Positions 13,939 through 63,547 of a stretch of 64,000 bases of DNA are shown here, piece after piece (position 1 is the first letter of the stretch; the number at the start of each line of letters is the position of its first letter). The translations under genes were made by a program, and so were the position numbers. This stretch comes from Escherichia phage ph0011: sequence record OP557969.1. One strand, written 5' to 3'. The notes beneath the pieces are model-generated. The model saw nothing but the letters and a program-made list of their open reading frames with translations. It was not told where the DNA came from and made no database searches.

Positions 13939-14475
13939 ATGTTAGATAAAATAATCAATACTGGAACACCATACAACCATCTTAAGTTGGATACATTTGA
14001 GTCAGCATTAAGTACTGCCCAAGATATAATTGATATTATTAAGTACATTAAAGAAAATAAGATAAAATGTTTAAAAAAGATAAATCATTCAATGTACAAA
14101 GATGACGACATTCATGTATCAGTTCTAAAGCCAAAAGATAAAGTAAATGGGAGAGATTTTTATAATAATAGTGGACAGTATGAATGCGAATATGACCCAG
14201 AATTTCGTGGCGGGTTCATGTGCTACAGTAAAAATGACACATCACATATTGAGATACGTACAATAAACGGTGGTATAACTAGATTGGAGTTCATTGATAT
14301 AGTTTTAAATCAGGAAAATTACTTCCAACAAACATTAATTTATCCTTCTTATTATGTAGGAGTACTATTCATGTACAAGTACTTCTATGTGCACTTAAAT
14401 GAAGATTTCTATATAGACTTAGAAGATTACCAATTAGTATGGGAAGAAATGATAGAACTTCGCAATAACACTTGA
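13939..14475 (+). CDS. FQ-family paralog
   Basis: ATG after GAGG; core NQENYFQQTLIYP. Confidence 0.65.
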   Translation: MLDKIINTGTPYNHLKLDTFESALSTAQDIIDIIKYIKENKIKCLKKINHSMYKDDDIHVSVLKPKDKVNGRDFYNNSGQYECEYDPEFRGGFMCYSKNDTSHIEIRTINGGITRLEFIDIVLNQENYFQQTLIYPSYYVGVLFMYKYFYVHLNEDFYIDLEDYQLVWEEMIELRNNT

Positions 14476-14501
14476 CCCCCACCAAATCTTTGTGATATAA
14501 T
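14472..14501 (+). promoter_or_regulatory. sigma70-like early promoter with extended -10 (TGTGATATAAT)
   Basis: TTGACC-N18-TATAAT with TG two bases upstream of the -10; intergenic. Confidence 0.5.
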
Positions 14502-14534
14502 CTCTTTAAATTAATTGTAAAGGGTTATATCGCA

Positions 14535-15008
14535 ATGTCACCAGACCTCAATTTCGATAATGCACAAAAAATCGCACAATATATCATTAAACTTCATAAG
14601 TTTCTCATAACAGTTAAAGAGGATATAATTCTACCCAAAGGTAAACTTTATGTGGGCAAAAATTATTTGTCATATCGTGGAAATTTATTGTATACTACAG
14701 ATGAAAATTTCTGTGGTATTCGTGTAATTGACGATGTACCAACAGGAAACTTTATCTCATATTGTTTCCGTACATCTAGTCGTTTTAAGTACTATCATCC
14801 TAGATATGATGATGAACATGACACATTTGATGTTAGGACAGAAGAAGATTTTTTCCAGAACAGTACTTTACACGATGAGAGAATTGTGTTGAGTTCTACA
14901 ATTTTTACAGTTCTTAAAGATGAACTCAACGACGCAAATGATAGATTCTATATGGATTTAAACTTCGTAGATGAAATTATGGAGTACATGGAGACGAATG
15001 GTTTATGA
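14535..15008 (+). CDS. FQ-family paralog
   Basis: ATG after AAGGG; core TEEDFFQNSTLHD. Confidence 0.7.
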   Translation: MSPDLNFDNAQKIAQYIIKLHKFLITVKEDIILPKGKLYVGKNYLSYRGNLLYTTDENFCGIRVIDDVPTGNFISYCFRTSSRFKYYHPRYDDEHDTFDVRTEEDFFQNSTLHDERIVLSSTIFTVLKDELNDANDRFYMDLNFVDEIMEYMETNGL

Positions 15009-15475
15009 TTACAACAACATATGATTACGATGGTGTTTTGGAATTTGCATCTAACATTCATCGCATTGCTAAGGAGTTCAGAAGTCCCGAACCGTTTGGT
15101 GGAATGTTCCATTATGACATGTTCAGTTCACCCAAAGGAAAACTTGCCTATAAAAATAATAAGGGTAATCAAGTATATGCTGAAATCTTTGACGATAATG
15201 ACTTTCACTACAAAGCCGAATACATTTCATATTGTCCTGGGTCTGATTTGAAGATTTATATTGATAGGGATAAAGAAAATGTATTTGTTCCATATACTGA
15301 TTTAGTCTTCATGTCAGAGGAAATGTACTTTCAGGAATCATTGATTCATGATATAAAAGTTCTTAATGCTATATTATTATATGGTACACTACTTAATTAT
15401 TACAAATACAATCAAAGATTCTTTTTAGATTTAGAAGTATACTATATATGCGTGGATTATTTGAATGCAAAATAA
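15005..15475 (+). CDS. FQ-family paralog
   Basis: ATGA overlap; core SEEMYFQESLIHD. Confidence 0.7.
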   Translation: MITTTYDYDGVLEFASNIHRIAKEFRSPEPFGGMFHYDMFSSPKGKLAYKNNKGNQVYAEIFDDNDFHYKAEYISYCPGSDLKIYIDRDKENVFVPYTDLVFMSEEMYFQESLIHDIKVLNAILLYGTLLNYYKYNQRFFLDLEVYYICVDYLNAK

Positions 15476-15827
15476 GAAAACAATTCAGTACATCACTGAT
15501 GGCAATGAATACTTTGCTTCAAGATATGAATTCAGTGAGGGTCATTTCGTAACTTATATACCTGAATATAATCAGTTTTATCTCCAGATTTACCAAAAAG
15601 ATTCCAATATAAATGAATTATATACCGAAATAAAAATCCCAGATTATAGTACTTTATCAGAAGAGGAATTGTTTCAGGAGAGCACGATCAGTACTGAAGA
15701 TGTATACGAACTAATTGAATATCAGAAGGTACTTAAATATTTCCATAAATCACATGATATAGAAATGGATATGGTTAAACCGTGGCGTTATAATACATAT
15801 GAGGTAAATTATGTTAGAAATGATTAA
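15465..15827 (+). CDS. FQ-family paralog
   Basis: ATG ORF; core SEEELFQESTIST. Confidence 0.65.
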   Translation: MQNKKTIQYITDGNEYFASRYEFSEGHFVTYIPEYNQFYLQIYQKDSNINELYTEIKIPDYSTLSEEELFQESTISTEDVYELIEYQKVLKYFHKSHDIEMDMVKPWRYNTYEVNYVRND

Positions 15828-16224
15828 AATCATACAACGCTGTCTTGTTGACAAATATGGTATATATGGATATAGTTTAAGTGCTCCTATTGACAAAAAC
15901 AAAACAACCTATGTAAGCTATAATGCAGTGCGTGGGTTTGATATATTCATTAGTACTAATCATCAAATTAAACAAGCTAAAGATGTGTCTATGATGGCCC
16001 CTGACGAGTTGTTTCAGTACAGCTTAGTTCTTCCTACATGTATCGATATACATCGTCTAGGAGCTATACAGAAGGTTTTACGTGAACATAAAATACTACC
16101 TAATAAAATTACACACATCCCAGAAACAATCTTCAAAACCATAGAAGTAGAAACCCCTGATTATATGTTAAGTGATGATGAGTTCTACGAGAAGCACTTC
16201 CCTGGTAAAGTTTGGAGAGACTAA
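15811..16224 (+). CDS. FQ-family paralog
   Basis: ATG after GAGG; core APDELFQYSLVLP. Confidence 0.65.
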   Translation: MLEMIKIIQRCLVDKYGIYGYSLSAPIDKNKTTYVSYNAVRGFDIFISTNHQIKQAKDVSMMAPDELFQYSLVLPTCIDIHRLGAIQKVLREHKILPNKITHIPETIFKTIEVETPDYMLSDDEFYEKHFPGKVWRD

Positions 16225-16691
16225 TGAACCGAAAGTACAGAGAAACTATGAAGTTCACTAAGGAGTGTTTAGAGGTAGTTGATTTCATTTTCGATAACAA
16301 AGACTCTCTGGGTCATCACTTCGTAATTACAAAGAAAGAAGATAAGAGATACAAGTGTCAAAGACTAGGATACAGTATTGAGTTCTCCTTAATGAGTGAT
16401 GGAATGATTAACTCCTTATATGAATGTGGGAAGACTGATTACATTTCATTTAGATCATGGAGTGATAATATAATGTTCTTGAGTCCTAATGGAAGTAAAT
16501 ATCCATTTCTTAATGATTTATCAGAAGAAAGTTACTTTCAAAATAGTTTAATTTACACAGAAAAAGAACTCAAGATGCTATTCATTATGTCGTACTTTAA
16601 AAAGTACTGCAAATTTAAATTATTATCTTTTGAGATTTCATCAATGAAAGTATTCATTAAAAATGTAAAAGAATTAAAGAGGGTTTTTTGA
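16224..16691 (+). CDS. FQ-family paralog
   Basis: ATG at 16224 (TAATG overlap) after GGAGAG; core SEESYFQNSLIYT. Confidence 0.65.
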   Translation: MNRKYRETMKFTKECLEVVDFIFDNKDSLGHHFVITKKEDKRYKCQRLGYSIEFSLMSDGMINSLYECGKTDYISFRSWSDNIMFLSPNGSKYPFLNDLSEESYFQNSLIYTEKELKMLFIMSYFKKYCKFKLLSFEISSMKVFIKNVKELKRVF

Positions 16692-17802: not shown

Positions 17803-18313
17803 AGATGGTATTCTAATTAGACTAATTAAGAGTTTGATGAAGTTCACAAATAATGATGTCGATACATACAAAGTTGGGGATATTGAATTCAAATCATTTG
17901 GTATGTACGGTGAAGCCAAAACATATTATGCATCAATAAAATTACAAGAATCACACGAAATGTTAATATCGTTATCATACGAAGATGTTGACCCAAGATG
18001 GAGTTCCAGTATCTCGTTATCGAGAATGGTAATTCGTAATAATCACCGATACATTTCGTCAAGGAATACTCCTAACTTGTTTGATATTGTTTTGAATGAA
18101 AATACCAACCCTATATCTAAACATGATATCGTACCTTTAACTGATGAAGTTCGTTTTCAGTTGAGCACCATTTGTGACGAAGATGTAATATCATGTATGA
18201 AAATTTACGAGAAGGTTGGGAGTGATATTCCCATGAACTATTACCTAACCATCGATGGAACGTACATCCGAGATGATGTTCTTGTGTACATTGACAGTGT
18301 TTTACCAAAATAA
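17795..18313 (+). CDS. FQ-family paralog
   Basis: ATG ORF; core TDEVRFQLSTICD. Confidence 0.65.
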   Translation: MDKDGILIRLIKSLMKFTNNDVDTYKVGDIEFKSFGMYGEAKTYYASIKLQESHEMLISLSYEDVDPRWSSSISLSRMVIRNNHRYISSRNTPNLFDIVLNENTNPISKHDIVPLTDEVRFQLSTICDEDVISCMKIYEKVGSDIPMNYYLTIDGTYIRDDVLVYIDSVLPK

Positions 18314-18334
18314 AGACCCGTATGGGTCTTTTTG
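18313..18334 (+). terminator. rho-independent terminator
   Basis: AAGACCC-GTAT-GGGTCTT hairpin followed by a T-run, immediately after the stop at 18313. Confidence 0.6.
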
Positions 18335-18344
18335 TGTTTTAGGC

Positions 18345-18373
18345 TTTACATAAGCATTCAGGTGTGTTATACT
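18345..18373 (+). promoter_or_regulatory. candidate sigma70-like promoter
   Basis: TTTACA-N17-TATACT upstream of the ATG at 18401. Confidence 0.4.
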
Positions 18374-18400
18374 TGATTTTAAATAAAATTGGAGGAATAT

Positions 18401-26122: not shown

Positions 26123-26234
26123 TTATGTCGAAGAAAGTTAATAATTTCGTACAGAAACACATGAATGAGTTTAATAAACCTCAAACACATGTGGATCGTA
26201 AAAAAGAAATGAAAAATGGTAAAGTAAAACATAA

Positions 26235-27457: not shown

Positions 27458-27486
27458 GTGGACAAATTAAATCCCTGTGATATAAT
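27458..27486 (+). promoter_or_regulatory. sigma70-like early promoter with extended -10 (TGTGATATAAT)
   Basis: GTGGACA -35-like, about 16-17 nt spacer, TGaTATAAT; intergenic upstream of 27517. Confidence 0.5.
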
Positions 27487-28258: not shown

Positions 28259-28267
28259 TAAACCATA

Positions 28268-28298
28268 GGACGGGATATAATATCTCGTCCTTTTTTTT
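28268..28298 (+). terminator. rho-independent terminator
   Basis: GGACGGGAT...ATCTCGTCC hairpin followed by T8, just after the stop at 28258. Confidence 0.55.
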
Positions 28299-28310: not shown

Positions 28311-29159
28311 ATGAAACTTTATCTAATCGTTGACTACAGTAAGGGTTATTATGACTACGCAGAAGAATCTGAAGGGTATTGCTCGTCTACTAATGTCAAT
28401 GTACGCACCAGTAGTACACATGAGCATGAATCTATTACAAATCTAAAAGATTTTATTGCATATCGAGCATTTGAAAAGAATTTCTGTCGTAGTAGATATT
28501 CGAAGTTTGAGTACCCGTTAATTGATGTTCCTGATGAATTGATGTTCCAGTTAATGCTCACTGGAGTACAAGATTATGATTACATTGCGTACAATCACAT
28601 TACTAAGAAAATTTATATCGGTACGTCAACGCATGACATTTCTATGTATGCATCATGCCCCGATGATCGAATGAATGATAGAAAATCATACTATAGTGGT
28701 TCAGTTGGTTCAAATGTTCCATCAAATAAAAATTTATTCTTTGAGTACGAGTTTGATAATCATCGAGGGAAAACAGACCGAGAAGATTATTGTACTGAAA
28801 TTAATAGTTCAAATGGATATGAAGAAGTGAAAGAAGCAATAATGCCATATATCCTAGACAAGTACTACAAAGATTTTCAGTACTGTAGTAATTTTCTAAT
28901 CCGAAATTCTATCAAAATCGGTCGTCAAAGCACTGCATTCTCTAAGTACTACAATGATTCCCCTGTTGCTGAAAATGAATACTGTAATGTTCTCTCAATC
29001 CCACGTGAAGATATGGTATTCATGTTCACATCTTTCATTGAAGATGATGAGTTGTATGTAAAAAACAAGCACAGGTTCATGCTAAGTAATATTGAGGTTA
29101 TGAGAAGCTTAAGTGCAGATATATTAACGAATTTCACTGAAAAAACAGAATACAACTGA
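28311..29159 (+). CDS. FQ-family-related protein (atypical, long C-terminal extension)
   Basis: ATG after GGAG; motif PDELMFQLMLTG near residue 75 of 282. Confidence 0.6.
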   Translation: MKLYLIVDYSKGYYDYAEESEGYCSSTNVNVRTSSTHEHESITNLKDFIAYRAFEKNFCRSRYSKFEYPLIDVPDELMFQLMLTGVQDYDYIAYNHITKKIYIGTSTHDISMYASCPDDRMNDRKSYYSGSVGSNVPSNKNLFFEYEFDNHRGKTDREDYCTEINSSNGYEEVKEAIMPYILDKYYKDFQYCSNFLIRNSIKIGRQSTAFSKYYNDSPVAENEYCNVLSIPREDMVFMFTSFIEDDELYVKNKHRFMLSNIEVMRSLSADILTNFTEKTEYN

Positions 29160-29189
29160 GACATACCATAAGTTTATGATATAATATAA

Positions 29190-29220
29190 GGTGACAGCAG
29201 AATATGTTGTCACCTTTTTT
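29190..29220 (+). terminator. rho-independent terminator
   Basis: GGTGACA-11 nt loop-TGTCACC hairpin followed by TTTTTT, 30 nt after the stop at 29159. Confidence 0.6.
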
Positions 29221-29762
29221 AATCCTGAAAGGTTCCTTTAAAGGAAACGTTTAAAACCTAATCCACTCGAAAATGTAGAGGGTAGATGAGTAGTCCTTTC
29301 AGTACGAACAGCAGATGAAACCCGTTAGATGATGGCATAGTTTGAACCACTCACGGCAATGCGGCTGTATAAAGAACTCCAATAGGATAAAGAGAGTTCC
29401 TCGATAGACATATAAGGATCGCACCTTACCAATTATCTAAGGGAGATTTCATGAGAAATATGCGGTCGGAATTATACAATATAGTTGCGTCCAAATTTTG
29501 TGAAATCAAATACAAGTACTGGTCATATGGTATTTGTATTATGTGTTGGGATGTTTAAGACCAACGACCGTTGCTACAAGAACCGCGATAGAGAGAAACC
29601 GAGCAACCCGCTTTCGTCTCGTATGAGAATTCGTGATATGAACTATGTGAAGACCACCAGCGTCAAATTTTTTTGTTCTTTCCCCTGCGGGGGGATGAAA
29701 TATGCTCAAACAAACCTCGTCAATATTAATTAAAAGAATTATTATTACTTGTAGAATTTGAC
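29221..29762 (+). other. ORF-free island of about 540 bp; candidate structured non-coding RNA or regulatory region
   Basis: No convincing ORF on either strand in an otherwise densely coding genome; appears locally G+C-richer by eye with several short inverted repeats (e.g. CCCCTGCGGGG at about 29682-29692). Confidence 0.3.
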
Positions 29763-34981: not shown

Positions 34982-35240
34982 AGTTCTTATTGCTGAAACA
35001 ATGAATATGATTTATTTTATTACTACGGCACAGGATTTGTCTTATCCAGTGAAATCGTTACTTAGGTCAATGTATATTGATATTGTAAAAGAATATTATA
35101 AATCTAAACACAGAAGTATTATTAGTGTTTATCGTGATTATGAAAGGATTCGTATTTTATTCTGGAACAAGAACCGAGTTCGTGAGGAATGTGATCTAGT
35201 AGATTTTAAATTAGAGAATCTTTATTGTTACAAAATTTAA
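34962..35240 (+). CDS. small hypothetical protein
   Basis: In-frame ATG at 34962 after AAGGA. Confidence 0.5.
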   Translation: MTNTTNEVLIAETMNMIYFITTAQDLSYPVKSLLRSMYIDIVKEYYKSKHRSIISVYRDYERIRILFWNKNRVREECDLVDFKLENLYCYKI

Positions 35241-35296
35241 AAGATGATAAATATTTTACAAAAGAATGTTTTTTTAGAAAAAAAAGGATTTTGTAA

Positions 35297-36781
35297 ATGA
35301 AAGTATGTACGAATTTAAATGTTACTGGTGATATAACGTCTAATGGGATGACGTTAAGCAAGAATCATAATTATGAGAATTTTAGTGACCTACAAGAAAG
35401 ATGTACTAAAATGCTTTTACAATTTGATAAACCTGAAGTATACGATCCTGATATTACTATTACAATAACTACTAAAAATGTAAATTATACATATAAAGGA
35501 CCAATTGATGGTATGTGTGATATAGAAAATCCTTCATTGTATAAAATTTCCATGTATGTATACACTGACAAAGAGTATTTTATAAACGATGTACAATTAT
35601 CAGATGATGGTAGTTTTCATTTTTCTAAAACGAATAATGGCTCAAAACAATTTAGACTAATTAGAATATCTGATAATAAATGGATTGATACATTAGAATA
35701 TGCATTATTGACTAGAAGTTATATAATACCAGAAACTGAAGATTCGCAAGTTAGAAATACAATGAAAGATCGTTGTTACACATATGATCAAGCGGCAGTT
35801 GCTATTGCATTAATGGTACAAAACCACCCAGAGATGGATAGATATGTATATGGTTTGTGTCAATTGGTTGAGGAAAATGGTGGAATAAAATTTTTTGTTA
35901 ATAGGATATCGGCATTTTCCAATAGAGCATACTATAGAATGGGTAATGCTGCATGGGTATTATATGGATTAGCTTTTTACTTATGGAAATTCCCAGATGG
36001 GGTATATGCGAATTTGGCCCGTGAAAAACTTTTGTTAGGGTTAGAATGGGTATCAACTTTTAAAGTAACTACACCCGGTGATAAAAGAGAAGGTTTATAT
36101 ATGGGTGGAAAAGGAAAATTTATCAATAATGGTTCTCAATTTGACCCGAATTACATTGCTAGTTGGTGTGCAATGGAACACAATTTAGATCTTTGGTTTT
36201 TATTTGATCTATGCTCTGTTATTGGAATTCAGAATTATGATACAATAGCAAAGGAATTACATAATAATATAAATGATAAATTGTGGATAGAAAGTGAAGG
36301 ACGTTTTCGTCAAGGTGTACATGAAACAACAGATGATAATGCTGCTGCATTAGATCAATCATCATGGGGTGGTTTGTATTCTTTATATGCAGATGGTAAT
36401 GATACAAAAGCAGTAAAATGTCACAAATATATGGAACGTTTTATGTTTGGTACGTTGGAATGTGAGGGATATACGCCTTATAATAAATTATTTGGTTATC
36501 CAAATGCAGTACAAGGTGTATGGACTGAAGGAACTGCTGGTGTGGCTTTGTTTGAACGTGCATTGGGTAATGACAGAACTGCCGCAAAATTAATTGCTAA
36601 TTTGAAGCCTATATGTGACCCAGTTTATGGATATCGTGACTCATGTGATGACCCAGATTACGATGTTCTTCCAGATTGGCCTTCCTCGTGTAATACAGCA
36701 TGGATTATTCTGGCTATTAACCCACAAGGTTTCTGGAAAGTTGAAGCCCCACTGATGGATATTGGGCTTGTGAAATATTAA
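35297..36781 (+). CDS. large hypothetical protein, possible alpha/alpha-toroid (six-hairpin) glycoside-hydrolase-like fold
   Basis: ATG after AAGGA; 494 aa; repeated aromatic/Gly-rich segments (NAAWVLYGLAFY, LDQSSWGGLY, VWTEGTAGVALF, SCNTAWIILA); fold call is my pattern-based guess. Confidence 0.5.
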   Translation: MKVCTNLNVTGDITSNGMTLSKNHNYENFSDLQERCTKMLLQFDKPEVYDPDITITITTKNVNYTYKGPIDGMCDIENPSLYKISMYVYTDKEYFINDVQLSDDGSFHFSKTNNGSKQFRLIRISDNKWIDTLEYALLTRSYIIPETEDSQVRNTMKDRCYTYDQAAVAIALMVQNHPEMDRYVYGLCQLVEENGGIKFFVNRISAFSNRAYYRMGNAAWVLYGLAFYLWKFPDGVYANLAREKLLLGLEWVSTFKVTTPGDKREGLYMGGKGKFINNGSQFDPNYIASWCAMEHNLDLWFLFDLCSVIGIQNYDTIAKELHNNINDKLWIESEGRFRQGVHETTDDNAAALDQSSWGGLYSLYADGNDTKAVKCHKYMERFMFGTLECEGYTPYNKLFGYPNAVQGVWTEGTAGVALFERALGNDRTAAKLIANLKPICDPVYGYRDSCDDPDYDVLPDWPSSCNTAWIILAINPQGFWKVEAPLMDIGLVKY

Positions 36782-36793
36782 TTATAATAAAAA

Positions 36794-36825
36794 ATGAACA
36801 TATAAAAATATATGTTCATTTTTTT
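36794..36825 (+). terminator. rho-independent terminator
   Basis: ATGAACATATA-loop-TATATGTTCAT hairpin followed by T7. Confidence 0.6.
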
Positions 36826-36826
36826 A

Positions 36827-36854
36827 TGGACATTATTAATATTTGTGATATAAT
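36827..36854 (+). promoter_or_regulatory. sigma70-like early promoter with extended -10 (TGTGATATAAT)
   Basis: TGGACA-N16-TGaTATAAT directly downstream of the terminator. Confidence 0.5.
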
Positions 36855-44291: not shown

Positions 44292-44597
44292 ATGGATATA
44301 CAAACATTCAATAAACTTAAGTACTACGACAATGGTTTTACTATTATTATTAATGAACTGGATGGGATACCATATGAGTATCATAATGGTGTAATGAAAA
44401 TATTAAAAAGTATTTGTGATGATTTAAAAACTATATTTGAAAATGAATATGTTTACGACTTAGGCATAAACAATAAAAAATTATACATAAAGAAATTCAG
44501 TGGGACGCATTGTGGGCTGATGGTTAATTTGGGTTTATGTGCTGACAATAATTTTGAAGCATGTAGTTTATATCTGGATGAAATGCGAATCTCATGA
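44292..44597 (+). CDS. small hypothetical protein
   Basis: ATG directly after upstream TAA. Confidence 0.55.
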   Translation: MDIQTFNKLKYYDNGFTIIINELDGIPYEYHNGVMKILKSICDDLKTIFENEYVYDLGINNKKLYIKKFSGTHCGLMVNLGLCADNNFEACSLYLDEMRIS

Positions 44598-44655
44598 GAC
44601 ATATCTTGAATCGGTGATATAATTTCATTACAACACTGACAATGGAGTAGATGTT

Positions 44656-46356: not shown

Positions 46357-47100
46357 ATGAAACATTTCTTAGAAGTTACAGTACCGGATGATAAAGATTT
46401 ATATATTGTTGGTGATTTACATGGTAATGGAAAACTGTGGGACGCGACTAAGAAAGAGTTCGGTGTCACCAACGAAGATTACGTGTTTTCTGTTGGTGAT
46501 GTTATTGACCGTGGTGACCAGAACTCTAAGCTTCTATTTGAATTCCTTTTCGGTGAAAACCGTTTTATGATTACTGGGAACCACGAGATGATGTGTGTTG
46601 ATTCTGAAACTCATCGTGACTGGTATCACTGTTGGGTCCAAAATGGTGGAGATAAGTTCATTGATGAAGTTGGGGTAACAGGCATTCAATTCTTTCGTCA
46701 GTACTTAAATGATCTCCCTATGATTATCCAAATCAATCACCGAGGATTGAAGATTGGGTTAGTTCATGCAGGTGTTCCATTGGAATATACAACATGGGAA
46801 CGTTTCGTTAATGGGACAAAATCACTTAGTGCTGATATAATTGAGAAGTGCTTGTGGGAACGTGATACATTTGACTACTGCAAGAAAAATAACACATATT
46901 ACGCCCCTAGACTTGATGGTATCCATTGCGTATTTAGTGGTCATACCGCAGTATCTGACCCACTCATTTATGGTAATCGTATTTGGATTGATAGTCAGTT
47001 TTTAACAGGTGATTTGACTCTTGCAACTCCACAAAGCGGTGGGATGAGATACTTACGTAAAGAAAAAGATGAGTACTCATTCAATCGTTTCAAAAGGTAA
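46357..47100 (+). CDS. metallophosphoesterase (Ser/Thr-phosphatase-like)
   Basis: Motifs GDLHG, GDVIDRG, GNHE characteristic of calcineurin-like phosphoesterases; start could also be the ATG at 46342. Confidence 0.75.
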   Translation: MKHFLEVTVPDDKDLYIVGDLHGNGKLWDATKKEFGVTNEDYVFSVGDVIDRGDQNSKLLFEFLFGENRFMITGNHEMMCVDSETHRDWYHCWVQNGGDKFIDEVGVTGIQFFRQYLNDLPMIIQINHRGLKIGLVHAGVPLEYTTWERFVNGTKSLSADIIEKCLWERDTFDYCKKNNTYYAPRLDGIHCVFSGHTAVSDPLIYGNRIWIDSQFLTGDLTLATPQSGGMRYLRKEKDEYSFNRFKR

Positions 47101-51859: not shown

Positions 51860-52242
51860 TGGAAAATGTCGTTGTATATGTATTTGAGATCAATAATGAA
51901 ATCAAGTACGTAATTAATGGTTATAAACATTACACAAGAGCAGACCGAAAGCTGGAAATATATTCAAAAGAAGCAAGAAACTACTGCTTAGGTGATGATT
52001 CAGTTGAGGTTTGGATTGATGGAAATGCAGAGTATTTTGATGCTGACTTCTATGATGATCTTGACAAATCAAATGACTTGTACATTTATGTAGAAAATGA
52101 ACATTATTACACAAATTCTTTGTTTGACATTACCGACAGTACAGTATATGATACTGCTATGGTTAAGTTACTAAAGATTGACCACGATATGTTTAATAAA
52201 CATACAATTTGTGGTTTATTAGATTTTTTCAGAAACTTGTAG
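51859..52242 (+). CDS. hypothetical protein
   Basis: ATG overlapping upstream TGA; 127 aa. Confidence 0.55.
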   Translation: MENVVVYVFEINNEIKYVINGYKHYTRADRKLEIYSKEARNYCLGDDSVEVWIDGNAEYFDADFYDDLDKSNDLYIYVENEHYYTNSLFDITDSTVYDTAMVKLLKIDHDMFNKHTICGLLDFFRNL

Positions 52243-52267
52243 ACAAATACGATCACTGTGATATAAT
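52240..52267 (+). promoter_or_regulatory. sigma70-like early promoter with extended -10 (TGTGATATAAT)
   Basis: TAGACA-N16-TGaTATAAT in the intergenic region upstream of the ClpP-like gene. Confidence 0.45.
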
Positions 52268-52301: not shown

Positions 52302-52997
52302 ATGGTTGAACAATTCAATTTTGGTGGTTATGCTAATGGTGAAGTAAGTAACATTTCTATTCCATATGTAGTTGAGAAAGTTAATGGTTCAGAACGTACA
52401 TATGATCTAGCATCTCGTATGATGCAAGACCGTATCATTTTCCTTGATACTGACTTCAATGACCAAATGGCACATATCATCAAACAACAATTGGTGTGGT
52501 TAGACTCACAAGGTGATTCCCCTATTACATTCTATATTAGCTCACCGGGCGGTTCAGTACACGCAGGATTGGGTATTGCAGATGTTGCCAAGTCTTGTGT
52601 TTCACCAATTCGTACTGTAGTAATGGGTTATGCAGCTTCAATGGGGTGTTATACTCAATCGGTAATTGGTACTAAAGGTTTTCGTTTAGGTGGTAAGCGT
52701 TCTTACTTTATGTGTCATCAAGTAAGTTCTGGCACACAAGGTTTAATTACCGACCAGAAGATTTCACTTAAACATTCTGATGAATTGAATACACTATTGA
52801 CCAAAGAAATCGCAGAAGCAGTAGGTGTTTCTCATGAACAACTACTGAAAGATGCAGACCGTGATTTGTGGTTGAATGCTGAAGAAGCACTCGAATATGG
52901 TGAAAAAGGATTTATCGATGGTATTATCCTTGGACCACGCAACGAGAAAGGTCAATACCTAGTCAAGCGTCGTGGTGGTGTTGAAGAGTGGGTGTAA
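52302..52997 (+). CDS. ClpP-like serine protease (peptidase S14 family)
   Basis: ATG after GAGGAAAA; segments RIIFLDTDFND, ISSPGGSVHAG, GYAASMGC (Ser), MCHQ (His) align with canonical ClpP. Confidence 0.85.
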   Translation: MVEQFNFGGYANGEVSNISIPYVVEKVNGSERTYDLASRMMQDRIIFLDTDFNDQMAHIIKQQLVWLDSQGDSPITFYISSPGGSVHAGLGIADVAKSCVSPIRTVVMGYAASMGCYTQSVIGTKGFRLGGKRSYFMCHQVSSGTQGLITDQKISLKHSDELNTLLTKEIAEAVGVSHEQLLKDADRDLWLNAEEALEYGEKGFIDGIILGPRNEKGQYLVKRRGGVEEWV

Positions 52998-55356: not shown

Positions 55357-58029
55357 TTAAGCACTGATTGTTACAGTTGCAGTATCTTTTTTATTACCAT
55401 CCACTGTAGTCACTGTAATGATTACAGAACCTTCTTCTAGAGCAGTTACTAATCCATCATCACTAATAGATACTTTAGTAGGTTTATCTGCACTATAAGT
55501 TACTGATTTGTTAGTTGCTTTAGCTGGTAGAACTTCTGGAACTAGTTGAACTGTTTTAGTTCCTGATAGTGAAAGTTCAGTAGTTTTAGGTGTTAAACTA
55601 ACACTGGATACTGGAACTGGAATATTAACGATTACTGATGTTTGACCAGTAACATCACTACCATCAGCGGCAGTAGCGATAATATTTGCAGTACCATTAG
55701 TTAGTGCAGTTACGATACCAGTATTAGCATCTACTTTAGCAATTTCTGGAGCACTGGATGACCAAATTACATTTTTATTGGTTGCATCACTTGGGGTAAT
55801 TGCAGCAGCCATTTGTTTAGTTGCATTCAATGTAGTCAAAGTTTGATCTTTAGGAGTTACATCAATTGCAGTTACTGGCACTGGAATATTAACAGTAATA
55901 ACACCTTGACCTGTTTTACCACTTCCATCAGCAGCAGTTGCGATAATGTTTGCAGAACCGTTAGTTAACGCAGTTACAACACCAGTACTAGCATCTACTT
56001 TCGCTACAGCAGGTTTACTGGAAGACCATGTTACAGATTTATTTGTTGCGTTAGTTGGAAGAACTTCAGCAGCCATTGCTTGAGTTGCGTTAACAGCAGT
56101 CAATGTTTTAGTTGCTGGAGTAACATTAATAGATGCGACTGGAACTGGAATTGCTACAGTTACCGCACATTTTGCAGTTTTTGCTCCATCAGCAGTTGTT
56201 ACTGTGATATCAGCAGTGCCATTTGCTACAGCAGTGATTAAACCAGTTGGACTAACAGTTGCCACTCCATCAGCAGAAGTACTATAAGTTACTGCTTTGT
56301 TGGTAGCATTAGGTGGTAGTACAGTTGGTGTTAGTTGTTGAGTATCACCGACTGAAGTTAATTTAGCACTTGTTGGAGATACTGATACACTTGCAACAGG
56401 AACTGGAATGTTAACAGTTACCACGCAAACTTTAGAAAATCCACCATCAGATGTGGTTGCTGTAATATTTGCAGTACCGTTTGCAACAGCAGTGATTAAA
56501 CCAGTTGGACTTACCGTTGCGACACCCTCAGCAGAAGTAGTGTATGAAATATCTTTACGACGAGCGTTATCTGGAATAACAGATGCAGTTAGTTGTTGAG
56601 TAGCACCTACAGAAGTTAGGGTTGCTGTCAACGGAGTCATATTAATTCCAGTTACTGGGATCGTTACATCAATCACTGATTCAGCAGTTTTAGCACCATC
56701 ATCAGTGGTAACAGTAATAGTTGTAGTACCGTTATCAACCGAAGTTACTAGACCAGTATTACTAACTTTTGCTACGTCTGGATATGAAGAAACATATGAA
56801 ACTGCTTTATTGGATGCAGTTGCAGGAGCAACGGTTGTTTCTAATTGTTTAGTATCACCTAATGTTGAGAATGTATAAGTACTAGGAGTCATTGTGACAC
56901 CAGATACTGGTGTTTTCACTGTGATTGTAGTAGTGTCCGTTTTAGCACCATCTTCGGTTGTAGCTGTAATCACCACTGTGCCGTTAGCCACACCAGTTAC
57001 TAGACCAGAAGTAGGGTTAACAGTTGCTATATCAGGTGTTGCTGAAGACCACGTGACGTTTTTATTAGTTGCATCATCAGGAGATATTGTAGCAGTTAAT
57101 TGTTGAGTACTGCCAACGTTAATTGATGCAGTTTTAGGAGAAACAACAACACCACTAACTGGAGTTGTTACAGTAACAGTACATTTTGAAACAAATGAAC
57201 CATCAACTGTAGTTGCAATTACATCAGTACTGCCATCTGCAATACCAGTTACCATACCAGTTGGACTTACAGTTGCGAAGCGTGGTATACTGGATGACCA
57301 AATAACACTTTTATCACTTGCATCATCGGGTGATACGGTAGCTGTTAGTTGATGAGTTTTACCAACACCAAGAGATAGAGTTGAAGGAGAAACAACAACA
57401 CCACTAACTGGAGTTGTTACAGTAAATGCACAAACATCGGTGAAACCACCATCATGAGTAGTAACTGTTACATTTGCATTACCATTAGCACGGGCAATTG
57501 CTAAACCAGTTTGAGCATCAACTTCAACTATTGTTGGAGCAGAGGAACTATAACTTACTGTTGGATCATTTGCATAATCTGGATTAATTGTAGCTGATAG
57601 TTGTTGTGTGCTACCAACTTTAAGTGCTACTACTTTGGGTGAAATAATAACACCATTAACTGGTGTAGTATAATCACGTTTAACCACACGACCATTGTTC
57701 AATTTAATAATACGACCCATATAAAGAGTAGCATATCCCTTACTAATCCCATCATCTACATAAATCATAAATGAATTGTCTTGAACCATATTAATTGCGT
57801 CTACTGGCTTAACAGTATTTGGAATGTCGATACCACGGGTATCATACCAACACATGGAAACTTTGTAATATATATCACCATTATCATTGATGAGATCATA
57901 CACGTTACTGGAACGTTGACGGTTAATATATAAAGTTTCGGTTAATACCTTACCATCGATTTTAGCGACAGAAACTTTAATACCACCAATACCAAATGGC
58001 AATTTACCTTCACTAGATATTGCTTTCAT
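55357..58029 (-). CDS. large virion-surface-type protein with about nine to ten tandem Ig-like (Big_2-type) domains
   Basis: 890-aa ORF, the only strong minus-strand gene; AAGGAAA RBS; repeated 85-90-aa units TPVSGV..SP...L.VG.TQQLTATV.P.DATNK.V.WSS..P..A.V...G.VT.VA.GT..ITATT.DG; ~120-aa non-repeat N-terminal domain. Confidence 0.85.
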   Translation of the reverse strand: MKAISSEGKLPFGIGGIKVSVAKIDGKVLTETLYINRQRSSNVYDLINDNGDIYYKVSMCWYDTRGIDIPNTVKPVDAINMVQDNSFMIYVDDGISKGYATLYMGRIIKLNNGRVVKRDYTTPVNGVIISPKVVALKVGSTQQLSATINPDYANDPTVSYSSSAPTIVEVDAQTGLAIARANGNANVTVTTHDGGFTDVCAFTVTTPVSGVVVSPSTLSLGVGKTHQLTATVSPDDASDKSVIWSSSIPRFATVSPTGMVTGIADGSTDVIATTVDGSFVSKCTVTVTTPVSGVVVSPKTASINVGSTQQLTATISPDDATNKNVTWSSATPDIATVNPTSGLVTGVANGTVVITATTEDGAKTDTTTITVKTPVSGVTMTPSTYTFSTLGDTKQLETTVAPATASNKAVSYVSSYPDVAKVSNTGLVTSVDNGTTTITVTTDDGAKTAESVIDVTIPVTGINMTPLTATLTSVGATQQLTASVIPDNARRKDISYTTSAEGVATVSPTGLITAVANGTANITATTSDGGFSKVCVVTVNIPVPVASVSVSPTSAKLTSVGDTQQLTPTVLPPNATNKAVTYSTSADGVATVSPTGLITAVANGTADITVTTADGAKTAKCAVTVAIPVPVASINVTPATKTLTAVNATQAMAAEVLPTNATNKSVTWSSSKPAVAKVDASTGVVTALTNGSANIIATAADGSGKTGQGVITVNIPVPVTAIDVTPKDQTLTTLNATKQMAAAITPSDATNKNVIWSSSAPEIAKVDANTGIVTALTNGTANIIATAADGSDVTGQTSVIVNIPVPVSSVSLTPKTTELSLSGTKTVQLVPEVLPAKATNKSVTYSADKPTKVSISDDGLVTALEEGSVIITVTTVDGNKKDTATVTISA
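55360..57670 (-). repeat. in-frame tandem repeats of about 255-270 bp encoding Ig-like domains
   Basis: Recurrent nucleotide and peptide units visible across the gene body. Confidence 0.65.
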
Positions 58030-58294: not shown

Positions 58295-58329
58295 TGTTAA
58301 TGTTCCTTAACTCAAATCCGAGGTAATCA

Positions 58330-59857: not shown

Positions 59858-59872
59858 AATTATAAGAGAGAA

Positions 59873-60067
59873 ATGATGGCATACACAATTTATGAATGGA
59901 TTTTGAGTTTTATTATAGTATTTTTTATGGTTGTAATTTACAATAATGCTAAATGCTTATATAGAGATTTAAAATCCAATGGTTATCATGCAAACAATAA
60001 TTTAATGTATGCCTATCATATTGGAATCATTCTATTATTATCAATATATTTAATTGGCTTTATATAA
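59873..60067 (+). CDS. small predicted membrane protein
   Basis: ATG ORF; hydrophobic 64 aa. Confidence 0.5.
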   Translation: MMAYTIYEWILSFIIVFFMVVIYNNAKCLYRDLKSNGYHANNNLMYAYHIGIILLLSIYLIGFI

Positions 60068-60076
60068 GGATTACGT

Positions 60077-60829
60077 ATGATATCAGAAAAATTCATAAGT
60101 AATGAGGGAAACAAGAGATTACTTATCATCTCAGGAGCAGGTCTTTCCGTTGAAAGTGGTATGGACCCATTTCGTTTCGATGATGGCCTATGGGATACAT
60201 TTAAAATTAATGATGTATGTAATATTGCAAATTTAGATACAAAATATCATATTGTTCATTCGTTTTATAACACGCTGCGTGTTAAACTGGGTCAATGTGA
60301 ACCAAATGCAATGCATTATTTTATAAAATCATTAGAGGAACAATATGGTGATTGTTTCCTTCATATGACTTCAAATATGGATGATCTTTACACCCGTATT
60401 GGCGGTAAAGAACTTAAACTTCATGGTAATTTATGTGAAGTGATAGAAAATTATAGTATTAATGGTGATGATTACAACATTGTTAACTGTGGTTATGAGC
60501 CATATATCCCAAAACATGATATTTTTGCTAAACCAAATGTAGTGATGATTGGTGAGTATCATCGTTATGTAGATGGTGTACGCCTACCAATATATGAAGA
60601 ACGAAATAATGTCTTGAAATCCCTTGATGAAAATGATACAGTTATTGTTATTGGTAGCAGCGATACTGTTCTTGTATGGTCCCGATTGGTAGCATCATTG
60701 CCATGTTATAGTGTCAATGTTAATATTAGAAAGAATGATAATGATTTTTTGTTTAATGAAAAAATTATCAAGCCAGCAACCAAAGCAATACCACAACTAG
60801 AGACTATAATTAAGGAACGTATGAAATGA
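60077..60829 (+). CDS. Sir2-like (sirtuin family) protein
   Basis: ATG after AAGGA; LLIISGAGLSVESGMDPFR (GAGxS.ESG..FR), LHGNL (catalytic His), VVMIGE and TVIVIGSS motifs; canonical Zn CxxC pairs not evident. Confidence 0.78.
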   Translation: MISEKFISNEGNKRLLIISGAGLSVESGMDPFRFDDGLWDTFKINDVCNIANLDTKYHIVHSFYNTLRVKLGQCEPNAMHYFIKSLEEQYGDCFLHMTSNMDDLYTRIGGKELKLHGNLCEVIENYSINGDDYNIVNCGYEPYIPKHDIFAKPNVVMIGEYHRYVDGVRLPIYEERNNVLKSLDENDTVIVIGSSDTVLVWSRLVASLPCYSVNVNIRKNDNDFLFNEKIIKPATKAIPQLETIIKERMK

Positions 60830-61377
60830 GTGTTAAAGAAGTTCCCTTTGGTGAATATGGTTCACGTGCAAATTTTGTATTCTGCTATTTCTTTGCAAGA
60901 GGATGTAATCCCTACGAAAACTATGAGTTGAATGATATACCAGAAGTAAATTTAGTATTACTTCAACTACGATGGGATGGCCTTCTGGGTGGATGTGGTG
61001 GTACAGTTGAAAGTACTGATATCTCATTAGAAGATGCGTTGCGTCGTGAAATACAAGAAGAAATGAACTACTATATTTTTGTTTCTCACCTAAAACCACT
61101 TAAAACGTTTGAAATTTACCCAGGTGCAAACAGTCATAGTTTCAGTTATGAAGTAACATATGATGAGTTAAAATACATTCGTGATGGGTATACAACTGCC
61201 AAACATGCAAGTGCCGAAGTTGCTGGTGTAAATTTATGTCACATTTCTCGTTATTCTAAGGGACAAAATCGAGAAGCGGGATATAATAATCTTATGACAC
61301 AGAACTTCATCGGTACAGCAAAACACGAATTAGCGTATCTGGTACAAAAAGAGAACTTACTAATTAGCTATCTATAG
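60826..61377 (+). CDS. Nudix-like hydrolase (tentative)
   Basis: ATGA overlap with the Sir2-like gene; Nudix-box-like GCGGTVE...RREIQEEMN with non-canonical spacing. Confidence 0.45.
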   Translation: MSVKEVPFGEYGSRANFVFCYFFARGCNPYENYELNDIPEVNLVLLQLRWDGLLGGCGGTVESTDISLEDALRREIQEEMNYYIFVSHLKPLKTFEIYPGANSHSFSYEVTYDELKYIRDGYTTAKHASAEVAGVNLCHISRYSKGQNREAGYNNLMTQNFIGTAKHELAYLVQKENLLISYL

Positions 61378-61387
61378 GAGTTTAAAA

Positions 61388-61708
61388 ATGTCTTACTCTA
61401 TGTTTTTGGATGACATTCGTGATGCAAAACAATATTACCCTAATCAAGATATGGTAGTATGTCGTGATTTTAACAGTGCGTGTGAATATGTTGTTAAAAA
61501 TGGAATTCCAGCATTTGTATCATTTGACCATGACTTGGGTGATATGAGTGGAGACGAAAAAACTGGATATTCTTTTGCTAAATTTCTTATTGATTATATG
61601 TTTGATAATAATATTAAAGAACCGTTTGAGTACTTTGTGCACAGTAGTAACCCAGTTGGTAAAGTTAACATTGAAACATACTTAAACAATGGATTTAATG
61701 CATTATGA
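61388..61708 (+). CDS. hypothetical protein
   Basis: ATG after AGGAG; 106 aa. Confidence 0.55.
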   Translation: MSYSMFLDDIRDAKQYYPNQDMVVCRDFNSACEYVVKNGIPAFVSFDHDLGDMSGDEKTGYSFAKFLIDYMFDNNIKEPFEYFVHSSNPVGKVNIETYLNNGFNAL

Positions 61709-62007
61709 TTCAAACACATATTAAAAGTATCATTTGCACTATACTACTAGGTGTAGGAGTTCTATGGTTCAGTAATTATCACGAGAACACTAAGCGTACA
61801 AATATTCACTATAATACCGCAGAAGTTGTAAGTTTAGGACAATGTAGTGAGTACAAATGTTCGTTTATGTACAAAACCAGTAATGGTGAAGTACGTAATG
61901 GACTATCTAGTGAACCAGTTTCGATTGGTCAAATTGTTTACCAGGAGTGCTGGGAAGAAAAGGTTCGAGGTTCACGATGTTATGTTGAATACGAACCAAA
62001 AATGTAA
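61705..62007 (+). CDS. hypothetical protein with N-terminal transmembrane segment
   Basis: ATGA overlap; hydrophobic N-terminus. Confidence 0.5.
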   Translation: MIQTHIKSIICTILLGVGVLWFSNYHENTKRTNIHYNTAEVVSLGQCSEYKCSFMYKTSNGEVRNGLSSEPVSIGQIVYQECWEEKVRGSRCYVEYEPKM

Positions 62008-62070
62008 TAATAACATGAGTCAATAATAATAGCCGAGTACAAGGATGTACTCACAATTCAAGGATGTTTT

Positions 62071-63510
62071 ATGAAAAAATATACAATTGACACAAACGTA
62101 CTACTATCTGATCCAAATGCATCTGTTGCTTTTGATGGTGCTGCAATCATTCTACCATTTACAGTACTGGAAGAATTGGATTCGATTAAGAGTCGCAATG
62201 TTGATGTTTCACGTGATGCTCGTGTTGCGATTCGTAACATTGAAGCAATTATTGCAGAGGCATCACATAATGAGATTAGTTGTACTGGTGTTAATATTGC
62301 TGATGTTCATACCAATATGAGTCCTGAAAGCAAATTGTTTGTTATTACAAACGAAGAAGCTGAAGCACTAATTCGTACTAAGGCAATTGAAGATAAAGTT
62401 CAAACACTTCTCAAAAGTTCTGTACCAGATGATAAAATTATCTTAGTCGCTTTAGCAACTGATTCAGTACTGGTTACCCGTGATATCAATATGCGTATCA
62501 AGGCTCTTAGTTATGGAGTTGAAGTACAGGATTATCGTCATGATGTGGTTATCGGTGATAGCGATCTAATGCACGTAGGTCAACATCATCTCGATATCGA
62601 TTTCTGGGCAGAATTCAGTGGGATTGAAAATGCTGAAATTAAATCTGAAAAAACAGGTCGCCGCCTGTATCATTATATCCCAACACATCTAATCAAAGAT
62701 CTTCTTCCACAAAATCTTTGTATTGGTGACTATCTATATGATAATGCTGATGTGCTCTTTGTTTACGAAGGTCAGTCTGCAATCGAAGAAGATGATGGTA
62801 GTCTAACACCAGAAGATATTTTGGTCTTCCAAGATATTGGTCAATCTGTTGCATTACGTGCTAATGTATGGGATATTAAAGCTAAGAATGTCAAACAAGC
62901 ACTAGCTATTAATAGTATTCTCGATCCCGATGTACATCTAACAGTTCTACTAGGTTCTGCTGGGACAGGAAAAACACTAATTACGATTGCTACTGCACTA
63001 GAGTTAGTTCTGGAAAAACGTAAATACGACCGTATTATCTTCTCTAAAACACAAGATTCACAGTTTGAAGATATCGGATTCTTGCCTGGTTCAGAGGCCG
63101 AGAAAGTGATTCCATTTTGTGGTCCAGCGATTGACGCACTAGAGTACCTACATAAAGATGATGCAAATCCACAAGGTAGCATTGAGGAAATCATGAAACG
63201 TAATGTTATCCAGTTCAAAGCATTGAACTTTATTCGTGGTCGTTCTTTTGCCAATACAATTCTAATTGTGGATGAAGCACAGAACTTAACACCAGCCCAG
63301 CTAAAAACTGTCTTGACAAGAGCCGGAGAAAACTGTAAAGTAATCATACTTGGTAACCTAGCACAGATCGATAACAAGTTTATCAGTCCAGTAAACAGCG
63401 GTCTAACTTATGTAACTGAGAAATTTAAAAATTGGTCTGGTTGTCGTATCATTGAATTGGAAGGTGTTGTTCGTTCACCACTTGCTGAATTTGCTGAAGA
63501 AAATATGTAA
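62071..63510 (+). CDS. phoH: PhoH-like ATPase with N-terminal PIN domain (YlaK type)
   Basis: ATG after AAGGA; PIN-like N-terminus (YTIDTNVLLSDPNA...LEELD); Walker A LLGSAGTGKT, Walker B ILIVDEAQNL. Confidence 0.88.
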   Translation: MKKYTIDTNVLLSDPNASVAFDGAAIILPFTVLEELDSIKSRNVDVSRDARVAIRNIEAIIAEASHNEISCTGVNIADVHTNMSPESKLFVITNEEAEALIRTKAIEDKVQTLLKSSVPDDKIILVALATDSVLVTRDINMRIKALSYGVEVQDYRHDVVIGDSDLMHVGQHHLDIDFWAEFSGIENAEIKSEKTGRRLYHYIPTHLIKDLLPQNLCIGDYLYDNADVLFVYEGQSAIEEDDGSLTPEDILVFQDIGQSVALRANVWDIKAKNVKQALAINSILDPDVHLTVLLGSAGTGKTLITIATALELVLEKRKYDRIIFSKTQDSQFEDIGFLPGSEAEKVIPFCGPAIDALEYLHKDDANPQGSIEEIMKRNVIQFKALNFIRGRSFANTILIVDEAQNLTPAQLKTVLTRAGENCKVIILGNLAQIDNKFISPVNSGLTYVTEKFKNWSGCRIIELEGVVRSPLAEFAEENM

Positions 63511-63538
63511 TATTGTATGGGACAATATGTCCCATACA

Positions 63539-63547
63539 TGATATAAT
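63539..63547 (+). promoter_or_regulatory. candidate extended -10 promoter (TGaTATAAT)
   Basis: Follows an 8-bp hairpin immediately after the phoH stop; upstream of the ATG at 63580. Confidence 0.4.

Follow-up and report, generated by a model that had tools for sequence, protein, structure and literature searches.

The gaps between genes were analyzed in a 64,000-nucleotide stretch of the genome of Escherichia phage ph0011 (sequence record OP557969.1; hereafter, the window), in which a short word containing an extended -10 element recurs ahead of genes. We consider the chances somewhat better than even that this motif represents the -10 portion of a genuine promoter class belonging to the Rak2-like (group 2) jumbo phages, read by the host σ70, with an upstream box that would probably be read by a phage factor. 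An earlier sequence-only reading of the window had listed six sites with a common 11-12-mer and had interpreted them as T4-type early promoters. By megablast, the window was placed in the Asteriusvirus group (121Q, PBECO4, G17, Sharanji and CMSTMSU; 84-90% identity, full synteny), which comprises Rak2-like jumbo myoviruses of E. coli and Salmonella with genomes of ~350 kb. The G+C content along the window is 30-35% (overall, about 32% GC and 68% A+T), and the plus strand carries almost every open reading frame (ORF).

An extended -10 word between plus-strand genes

The six sites were confirmed in both coordinates and sequence, and all of them are located on the plus strand in gaps between plus-strand ORFs. 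The sequence TTGTGATATAAT is found at 14490-14501 and at 36843-36854, CTGTGATATAAT at 27475-27486 and at 52256-52267, CATGATATAAT at 63537-63547, and TATGATATAAT at 29175-29185. Four exact copies of the 11-mer TGTGATATAAT lie on the plus strand and none on the minus strand, against an expectation of 0.30, and none of 100 shuffled sequences reached four copies; when one mismatch was allowed, no significant excess was found in the window (11 versus 7.4 expected). The strand asymmetry extends to less specific words, since TGnTATAAT is found 16 times on the plus strand and once on the minus strand (about 5.6 expected per strand), TGATATAAT 11 times and not at all, respectively, and GACA-N15-18-TATAAT ten times and not at all (1.5 expected; shuffle maximum, 6). 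In an unbiased test of all 8-mers, with the intergenic share amounting to 5% of the window, the most gap-enriched words were GTGATATA, GATATAAT and TGATATAA.

The flanks of the four exact copies of TGTGATATAAT have no similarity to each other, which argues for convergent use of a signal and not for a duplicated cassette or segment. Scans with a generic σ70 consensus revealed no overall enrichment over shuffled sequences (133 versus 131, 107 versus 127.5 and 100 versus 104) and are uninformative here, because in such AT-rich DNA the counts equal those of the shuffles. It is important to mention that finding the word does not by itself identify this phage group, as GACA-N10-12-TGTGATATAAT was matched on more than 120 unrelated contigs of the IMG/VR database.

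Conservation of the promoter core in related phages

The syntenic regions of PBECO4, CMSTMSU, A4 and Turkey5, and in part those of G17 and UE-S1, were compared using the downstream gene as an anchor for the sequence upstream of it. This yielded 25 orthologous copies of six sites. T at -15, G at -14 and the hexamer TATAAT are 100% identical in all copies, position -13 is A in 23 of them and position -16 is a purine in 24. In the -35 zone, pairwise identity at the single positions -34 to -29 is 0.68-0.86 and the mean over -36 to -29 is 0.72, and identity falls to 0.54 both in the spacer and upstream of -38. An A is present at the seventh base past the hexamer, the predicted +1, in 19 of the 25 copies, and A is the commonest base at -43 to -38 (12-19 of 25), in a genome that is 68% A+T.

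At several loci everything but the conserved positions has been replaced, namely at 52239 in PBECO4 and Turkey5, at 27458 in A4 and CMSTMSU, and at 36826 in Turkey5 (promoters are designated by their first position; Table 1). At 14472, CMSTMSU and PBECO4 keep TTGACA and TGTGATATAAT, and spacer and flank differ. The -10 and TGn of 27458 are invariant in PBECO4, A4, CMSTMSU and Turkey5, which keep GACA or AACA ahead of them and are not alignable further upstream. The orthologues of 36826 have (A/C)GGGACA or TGAACA boxes with an invariant TGATATAAT. The promoter at 44595 is conserved in CMSTMSU, G17, PBECO4 and UE-S1, with a diverged spacer. At 52239, PBECO4 and Turkey5 keep GACA and GTGATATAAT with replaced spacer and upstream sequence, and at 63518 both A4 and Turkey5 have TTGACA and TGCTATAAT.

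The recurrence of the 11-12-mer is thus real, but as a motif it was over-specified, the first T/C and the T at -17 not being conserved. The footprint points to R-TG-A-TATAAT as the functional core. TG at -15/-14 followed, one base later, by a TATAAT-like hexamer, which defines an extended -10 element, is present at all seven gap sites (TGATATAAT), one of which had not been listed. The distance from the -10 to the start codon is a constant 30-34 nt at six of them, and the seventh heads a non-coding RNA. On the basis of strand bias, gap position, constant leader and phylogenetic footprint, the sites are predicted to be genuine, conserved σ70-type extended -10 promoters that head plus-strand gene transcription.

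The upstream box and its dependence on phage lineage

The sequence-only reading had placed a TTGACA-like hexamer 16-18 nt upstream of each site. The spacing proved right; the hexamers agree with TTGACA at only four or five of six positions and constitute a distinct motif. Hexamers and spacers of the six listed sites are, in order of position, TTGACC/18, TGGACA/16, GAGACA/16, TGGACA/16, TAGACA/16 and GGGACA/17. A TG(G/A)GACA or xTGGACA-like box is present in five of the six, with 14472 as the exception. At 27458, 29157, 36826, 44595 and 52239 this box is a 7-mer that ends exactly 13 nt before the TG, and the gap is 14 nt at 63518 and at 46812, a candidate site inside a gene.

The analysis was extended to a relative, EC22.5-2, whose complete genome was assembled (351,992 bp) and whose 58-122 kb stretch is syntenic to the window. 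Exact TGnTATAAT sites located 15-60 nt upstream of a gene start number 21 in this genome, and 21 of 21 are on the plus strand. A looser set of 39 sites (-10 of TA[TC]AAT, 15-80 nt from the start, four non-coding RNA heads included) gave the box consensus TGRGACA, with counts of T26 G25 R30 G22 A27 C19 A22. Sites of the box type are distributed over 88-343 kb. Canonical TTGACA promoters (one mismatch at most) upstream of genes number 45 in the same genome, 44 of them on the plus strand and most without TGn, and they concentrate at 33-48 kb and 294-350 kb; many are copies of a near-identical cassette, TTGACAAAGTAT.TCAGTACTGTATAAT, that lacks TGn. The stretch syntenic to the window falls outside these arrays, which are likely immediate-early regions.

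The promoter that heads the non-coding RNA made it possible to compare the box at one orthologous place. The box is TGAAACG in GAP32, Yersinia fHe-Yen9-04, Serratia BF, Xanthomonas XbC2 and Erwinia Kaldavass, TGAAACA in CBB, and TGAGACA in the window, the other Asteriusviruses and Salmonella phage Munch. Among further copies of the RNA in IMG/VR, the same lineage rule holds in 17 of 18. The box sequence therefore tracks phage lineage and not host. The hosts of the compared lineages are mostly Enterobacterales, and region 4 of σ70 in those hosts should essentially match that of E. coli.

A structured non-coding RNA downstream of the promoter at 29157

The promoter at 29157 begins one base ahead of the stop codon of ORF 28311-29159 and is followed by a stretch, 29186-29762, in which no credible ORF was found. 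This stretch is more conserved than the flanking genes, with 94-96% identity among Asteriusvirus members; in Mimasvirus, Eneladusvirus, Munch-like phages and other genera, an identity of 70-75% extends over ~480 nt. When 25 kb were searched for DNA-level alignment to distant genera, only this stretch and a ~1.9-kb DNA-ligase region aligned. RNAalifold applied to 13 sequences gave 107 base pairs, in which 92% of cells are canonical; compensatory changes on both sides are seen in 42 of the pairs, versus 9-14 when the partners were shifted. Rfam and tRNA searches detected nothing credible in the window, at the RNA locus (E ≤ 10) or in five distant homologues (E ≤ 1). Some blocks bear a likeness to conserved regions of RNase P, an idea that was rejected since the RNase P covariance models gave no match even at E ≤ 10. 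With nhmmer, no relation to ncRNA002 or ncRNA004 from the RNA-seq of phage PA5oct was detectable, so that the PA5oct expression data are not transferable to this RNA.

The locus is unannotated in most of the records examined; those of GAP32 and Munch mark the counterpart of the hairpin at 29188-29216 as a terminator. The layout is kept across genera: a stop codon, the promoter, a hairpin with a T-run, a word that reads AATTGAGAAAAACTCTGAATG in most of the distant genera, about 650 nt, and the next gene. Orthologous promoters with TGAAACG or TGAGACA boxes occupy the same place in eight other genera or lineages. Covariation of the stem and retention of the T-run were seen across at least eight such lineages. 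Because the hairpin begins 3 nt past the -10, the predicted start falls within its 5' arm. The terminator would insulate the RNA from upstream transcription, and a start within the 5' arm would fix where the RNA begins, an end that the truncated stem might shield.

Four paralogues of the RNA are present in EC22.5-2, at about 89.9, 143.3, 223.1 and 333.2 kb, the last immediately after the RpoD-like sigma factor gene, and each of them has its own box + TGnTATAAT promoter. A conserved 15-mer of the RNA, searched in IMG/VR within a 22-position pattern, was found almost only on contigs of 350-378 kb, two or three times on each. The single exception is a 32.7-kb contig, which is probably a fragment, as it matches a 355-kb contig at every position of the promoter region. 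By these searches the RNA family appears to be found only in Rak2-like jumbo phages.

Comparison with known promoter classes

Three motif classes were predicted in the genome paper of phage CBB (PMC5259590). Class 1 is RpoD-like (TTGACA/TATAAT with a UP-like element) and concentrated in a small-ORF region proposed to be early; class 2, "divergent RpoD-like", has TGAAACG in place of the -35, is also found in GAP32 and lies mostly upstream of DNA-synthesis genes; and class 3 is the late ATAAATA (PMC5259590). Class 2 appears in its Table S6 as "Promoter 1", made up of TGAAACG or TGGAACG, 13 nt and TGnTATAAT, 29 nt in total (PMC5259590). The window sites resemble the CBB/GAP32 class, itself a MEME prediction from sequence alone, in that they come from the same phage clade, show the geometry of a 7-mer box, 13 nt and TGnTATAAT, occupy the orthologous position upstream of the non-coding RNA, and lie upstream of nucleic-acid-metabolism genes and not of small-ORF arrays. 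The box differs, being TG(A/G)AAC(G/A) there and TG(G/A)GACA (also xTGGACA and xTAGACA) here; position 4 is G here and A in CBB, and position 7 is A here and usually G in CBB. No TGAAACG-type promoter was found in any plus-strand gap of the window. Given the positional orthology at the RNA promoter, the window sites can nonetheless be assigned to the CBB/GAP32 class, as a form with a predicted Asteriusvirus-specific box. No promoter analysis was found in the RaK2 genome paper or in the Asteriusvirus papers checked, and the GenBank records of G17 and UE-S1 contain no promoter annotation.

T4 early promoters are UP/-35/TGn/-10 promoters, and any two of the -35, TGn and -10 elements suffice for a promoter (PMC2988021). 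The window sites share with them the host σ70-type -10, the TGn, a very strong consensus and a first gene that follows after a short leader, and possibly an A/T-rich upstream segment; they differ in that the -35 matches TTGACA at only four or five of six positions and would form a conserved lineage-specific box of its own, and in that a separate canonical TTGACA class exists within the same genomes. The sequence-only reading was thus borne out as regards σ70-type, extended -10 promoters, and a T4-early identity is the less likely reading, given the distinct box at five of the six sites and the TTGACA arrays elsewhere. Those arrays would be more natural immediate-early candidates than the window sites. 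T4 middle promoters are alike in combining a σ70 -10 (about half with TGn in T4) with a phage-specific box that replaces the consensus -35, and in lying upstream of nucleotide-metabolism, repair and RNA genes. The box itself is different, TGRGACA ending 16 nt before the -10 here and the MotA box TGCTTtA centred at -30 in T4; no (a/t)(a/t)(a/t)TGCTTtA centred at -30 was found at the sites, where TGRGACA is the conserved word. In E. coli extended -10 promoters, TG at -15/-14 and a consensus -10 likewise suffice, with a weak or dispensable -35, but the host examples have no conserved alternative box common to many promoters.

The sites were also compared to the PeSL cassettes of T4-like phages (PMC2839356, PMC4122927), in which a stem-loop terminator, a strong σ70-like promoter, a Shine-Dalgarno sequence and a start codon follow one another. 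Such a layout is present at three gaps, 3002-3062, 18312-18373 and 36792-36854, and one indel ends at a promoter (36826), as in the cassettes. In contrast to them, there is no stem-loop at 14472, 27458, 44595 or 52239, and the copies share the -10 and box words only. A terminator stands immediately upstream of one site among the six listed, and two other promoters are preceded by the terminators at 3002 and 18312. The suggestion that the sites often lie just after a terminator therefore failed, as it is true of 36843 alone (hairpin with U7, z = -6.2): upstream hairpins are absent at 14490, 27475 and 52256 (z = 0.3 to 1.0), and at 29175 the terminator comes after the site and not before it.

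Candidate readers of the promoters

The group 2 jumbo phages encode an RpoD-like sigma factor, a gp55-like sigma factor and gp33, but no RNA polymerase (PMC7824862), and the related phage PA5oct depends on the host RNA polymerase (PMC7318152). Lacking a polymerase of the phage, initial transcription must use the host σ70 holoenzyme. In the reading that we favor, TGnTATAAT would be read by the host core enzyme with host σ70, region 2 acting on TATAAT and region 3.0 on the TG, and this contact alone would be enough for open-complex formation. The box would make a weak -35 contact with region 4 (GACA, 16-nt spacer) and would probably also be the target of a phage-encoded factor, because many promoters per genome share a box variant that differs between lineages. 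If such a factor exists, the class would be a separately timed regulon, delayed-early or middle-like, distinct from the TTGACA promoters of the putative immediate-early regions; in the window it would drive blocks of RNA/DNA-repair and nucleotide-metabolism genes and one structured RNA.

Several points weigh against this reading. The start sites, the timing and the reader of the box are predictions, and no transcript data on this phage or any Asteriusvirus were found in the papers examined. TGGACA and TAGACA, at 27458, 36826 and 52239, match TTGACA at five of six positions, so that the boundary between the -35 types is fuzzy, and the TTGACA at 63518 in A4 and Turkey5 implies that the two forms are interchangeable, as would fit σ70 as the single reader. 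A weak -35 together with TGn is a well-known compensatory pattern of ordinary σ70 promoters. No AsiA or MotA homologue was detected by phmmer among 618 EC22.5-2 ORFs (nothing below E = 0.2), which is a weak negative, and no candidate box-binding protein was identified. Gene conversion between promoters could in principle also produce concerted box variants within a genome.

The sites may instead be plain host-σ70 immediate-early promoters like those of T4, as in the sequence-only reading, with the box as a degenerate -35 that TGn compensates and no phage factor involved, which we regard as a serious possibility that nevertheless falls well short of even odds. The perfect extended -10, GACA at a 16-17-nt spacer, the A-rich segment at -43 to -38, the equivalent composition of T4 early promoters, and TTGACA in place of TGGGACA at the orthologous 63518 site are all consistent with it; so are the matches on more than 120 unrelated viral contigs, understood as a generic housekeeping-sigma consensus, and the fact that the phage must begin transcription with an unmodified host holoenzyme. 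It explains less well why the position of the second T of TTGACA is T in only 8 of the 39 TGn-type promoters of EC22.5-2 (G in 18, A in 12), why a conserved TG extends the box past the σ70 hexamer, and why the Mimasvirus and Eneladusvirus lineages, with hosts that are mostly Enterobacterales like E. coli, have TGAAACG, which matches TTGACA at two of six positions. The canonical TTGACA promoters, moreover, cluster elsewhere in the same genomes.

Box and -10 might instead both be read by the phage RpoD-like sigma factor, which would make the sites strictly middle promoters; we consider this improbable. All group 2 jumbo phages encode such a factor, the box is lineage-specific, and three sigma factors (host, RpoD-like and gp55-like) for three motif classes would be economical. 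In EC22.5-2 the gene was found by phmmer at 332205-333170 (321 aa; Pfam Sigma70 r2, r3 and r4), within the second of the TTGACA-dense, putatively early arrays; a tblastn search with regions 2-4 of E. coli σ70 had missed it, and the weak match which that search gave at 292.7 kb is not a sigma factor. The residues W433, W434, Q437, T440, H455 and E458 of σ70 contact -11A, -12T and the TG of the extended -10. In the alignment to E. coli σ70 the phage protein carries W433S, W434S, Q437M, T440Y, H455Y and E458V, and with these contact residues substituted, an invariant TGnTATAAT is not its expected target. It is thus unlikely, by this alignment, that the phage factor is what keeps TGnTATAAT invariant. 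Hardly any weight is given to the view that the sites are not primarily transcription signals, but chance AT-rich words or PeSL-like recombination and shuffling cassettes that resemble promoters only secondarily. The lack of overall enrichment in the generic σ70 scan, the 1.6-kb insertion whose end coincides exactly with the -35 of the 36826 promoter and the three gaps with a terminator-then-promoter layout would agree with it. The exact-word excess, the complete strand asymmetry, the fixed distance to the start codon and a footprint confined to TGn, -10 and box do not; in addition, the dissimilar flanks of the copies offer little homology for recombination, and only a single indel boundary coincides with a site.

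Promoters and terminators of the window

The features are listed in Table 1. All six sites of the sequence-only reading were retained as real, and the list was incomplete, as it missed the gap site at 44595-44623 and the three TTGACA-like sites at 3034, 4379 and 18345.

Table 1. Promoters, terminator hairpins and the structured RNA of the window. Spacing is counted to the TG for seven-base boxes and to the -10 hexamer for six-base -35 elements; leader lengths run from the -10 to the start codon.
Feature	Position	Strand	-35 or box	Spacing (nt)	-10 region	Remarks
Extended -10 promoter	3034..3062	+	TTGACT	17	TGgTACAAT	Just past terminator 3002-3027; outside the range of the sequence-only reading
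Extended -10 promoter	4379..4407	+	TTAACA	17	TGTGCTATAAT	
Promoter	14472..14501	+	TTGACC	18	TGTGATATAAT	Canonical -35 type with TGn; start codon of ORF 14535, 33 nt
Extended -10 promoter	18345..18373	+	TTTACA	17	TGtTATACT	Just past terminator 18312-18331
Promoter	27458..27486	+	GTGGACA	13	TGATATAAT	Start codon 27517, 30 nt
Promoter	29157..29185	+	TGAGACA	13	TGATATAAT	Heads non-coding RNA locus
Intrinsic terminator hairpin	29188..29216	+				-18 kcal/mol, then U6; 3 nt past -10 of 29157
Structured non-coding RNA, conserved core	29255..29726	+				~470 nt; within ORF-free stretch
Terminator hairpin, AT-rich, U7	36792..36825	+				z = -6.2; ends the 1.6-kb insertion, directly upstream of 36826
Promoter	36826..36854	+	ATGGACA	13	TGATATAAT	GTG start 36886, 31 nt
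Promoter	44595..44623	+	TGAGACA	13	TGATATAAT (GGTGATATAAT)	Start 44656, 32 nt; not in the sequence-only reading
Candidate internal promoter	46812..46841	+	TGGGACA	14	TGATATAAT	Inside Ser/Thr phosphatase gene; status uncertain
Promoter	52239..52267	+	GTAGACA	13	TGATATAAT	Upstream of ClpP-family protease gene 52302-52997
Promoter	63518..63547	+	TGGGACA	14	TGATATAAT	Start 63580, 32 nt
All promoters (first positions)	3034, 4379, 14472, 18345, 27458, 29157, 36826, 44595, 52239, 63518	+				
Terminator-like hairpins (first positions)	3002, 18312, 26234, 28267, 29188, 32633, 36792, 37921, 42975, 53009, 53792, 55090, 63871	+				

The proposal that the sites divide the window into several early transcription units held in part. 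The promoters are present, and there are more of them than had been noted, but promoters and terminators are only partly paired, so that the listed sites do not cut the window cleanly into units. No promoter of the described type follows the terminators at 26234, 28267, 32633, 37921, 42975, 53009 and 53792. Read-through and weaker promoters must therefore contribute to transcription of the window. In the terminator hairpin at 28267-28291, the 5' arm and loop form a -10-like GGGATATAAT, with no recognisable -35 or TG.

The -35 of the 63518 promoter sits inside a 10-bp hairpin at 63515-63537 (GTATGGGACA ATA TGTCCCATAC) that has no U tract. The orthologues of A4 and Turkey5 have 8-bp inverted repeats around the -10 instead (GTGTTCAT..ATGAACAC and GCGTCCAT..ATGGACGC). 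Comparing 63515-63560 of the window to these phages, a structure that overlaps the promoter is kept and its sequence is not.

Within genes, the sites at 46812-46841 (Ser/Thr phosphatase gene) and 61259-61287 (Nudix gene) have in common GGGACAAAATC, a gap of 9-10 nt and GATATAAT. Both may be internal promoters, although their conservation is confounded by coding constraint.

Gene content, insertion and late island

By synteny and Pfam, the right half of the window encodes an RNA ligase, a polynucleotide kinase, a DNA ligase and a Ser/Thr phosphatase, as well as a ClpP-family protease, a dCMP deaminase, a Sir2 protein, a Nudix hydrolase and PhoH. The left half contains small ORFs without an assigned function. 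Tandem paralogous ORFs form two small families between 6520 and 15475 (6.5-15.5 kb), one of 6 and the other of 5 members (blastp, E < 1e-5). A single large paralogous array of the ORFs at 15-26 kb was considered and rejected, as only these two families pass the blastp threshold of 1e-5; the ORFs at 15.5-26 kb are alike in size, with no paralogy detectable at that threshold.

A 1.6-kb insertion, 35235-36827, is absent from all the relatives examined and fills precisely the interval from the stop codon of the upstream gene to the -35 of the 36826 promoter; in the relatives, GGGACA directly follows the stop codon at this locus. The insertion contains a 494-aa ORF (35297-36781) without a Pfam match and its own AT-rich terminator. 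In the gap ahead of this ORF, GATAAATA is present at 35246-35253.

The only substantial minus-strand gene (55357-58029) encodes 890 aa with nine Big_2 Ig-like domains. The T4-late word TATAAATA was not found on the plus strand of the window, and its sole occurrence is on the minus strand at 58074-58067, upstream of this gene, where TGTTATAAT overlaps it (58082-58067). The gene, whose region is variable among relatives, is probably a late island within the plus-strand block and probably encodes a virion decoration.

Implications for Rak2-like phages

Rak2-like jumbo phages (121Q, PBECO4, RaK2, GAP32 and CBB) are used in phage-therapy work, and no function is known for more than 80% of the genes they carry; the Asteriusvirus papers checked describe no transcription programme. 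Predictions of the promoter class itself already exist for CBB and GAP32; what stands out more here is the box that varies with lineage, together with the structured RNA family. The promoter at 29157 exposes an RNA family that covaries strongly and is present four times in each genome, and the box would be a concrete handle for finding a regulator that reads it. As a tentative and rather doubtful extension, the class may form a clade-wide regulon in which host σ70 acts on the -10 and TGn and a phage factor has co-evolved with the box (TGRGACA in Asteriusvirus, TGAAACG in Mimasvirus and Eneladusvirus), and which would include about four RNAs of ~470 nt. If this is true, it would be a MotA/AsiA-independent analogue of the sigma appropriation of T4. 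A verified promoter grammar would separate TTGACA arrays, the box + extended -10 class and TATAAATA late sites, and would allow the genes of these phages to be sorted into temporal classes from sequence alone.

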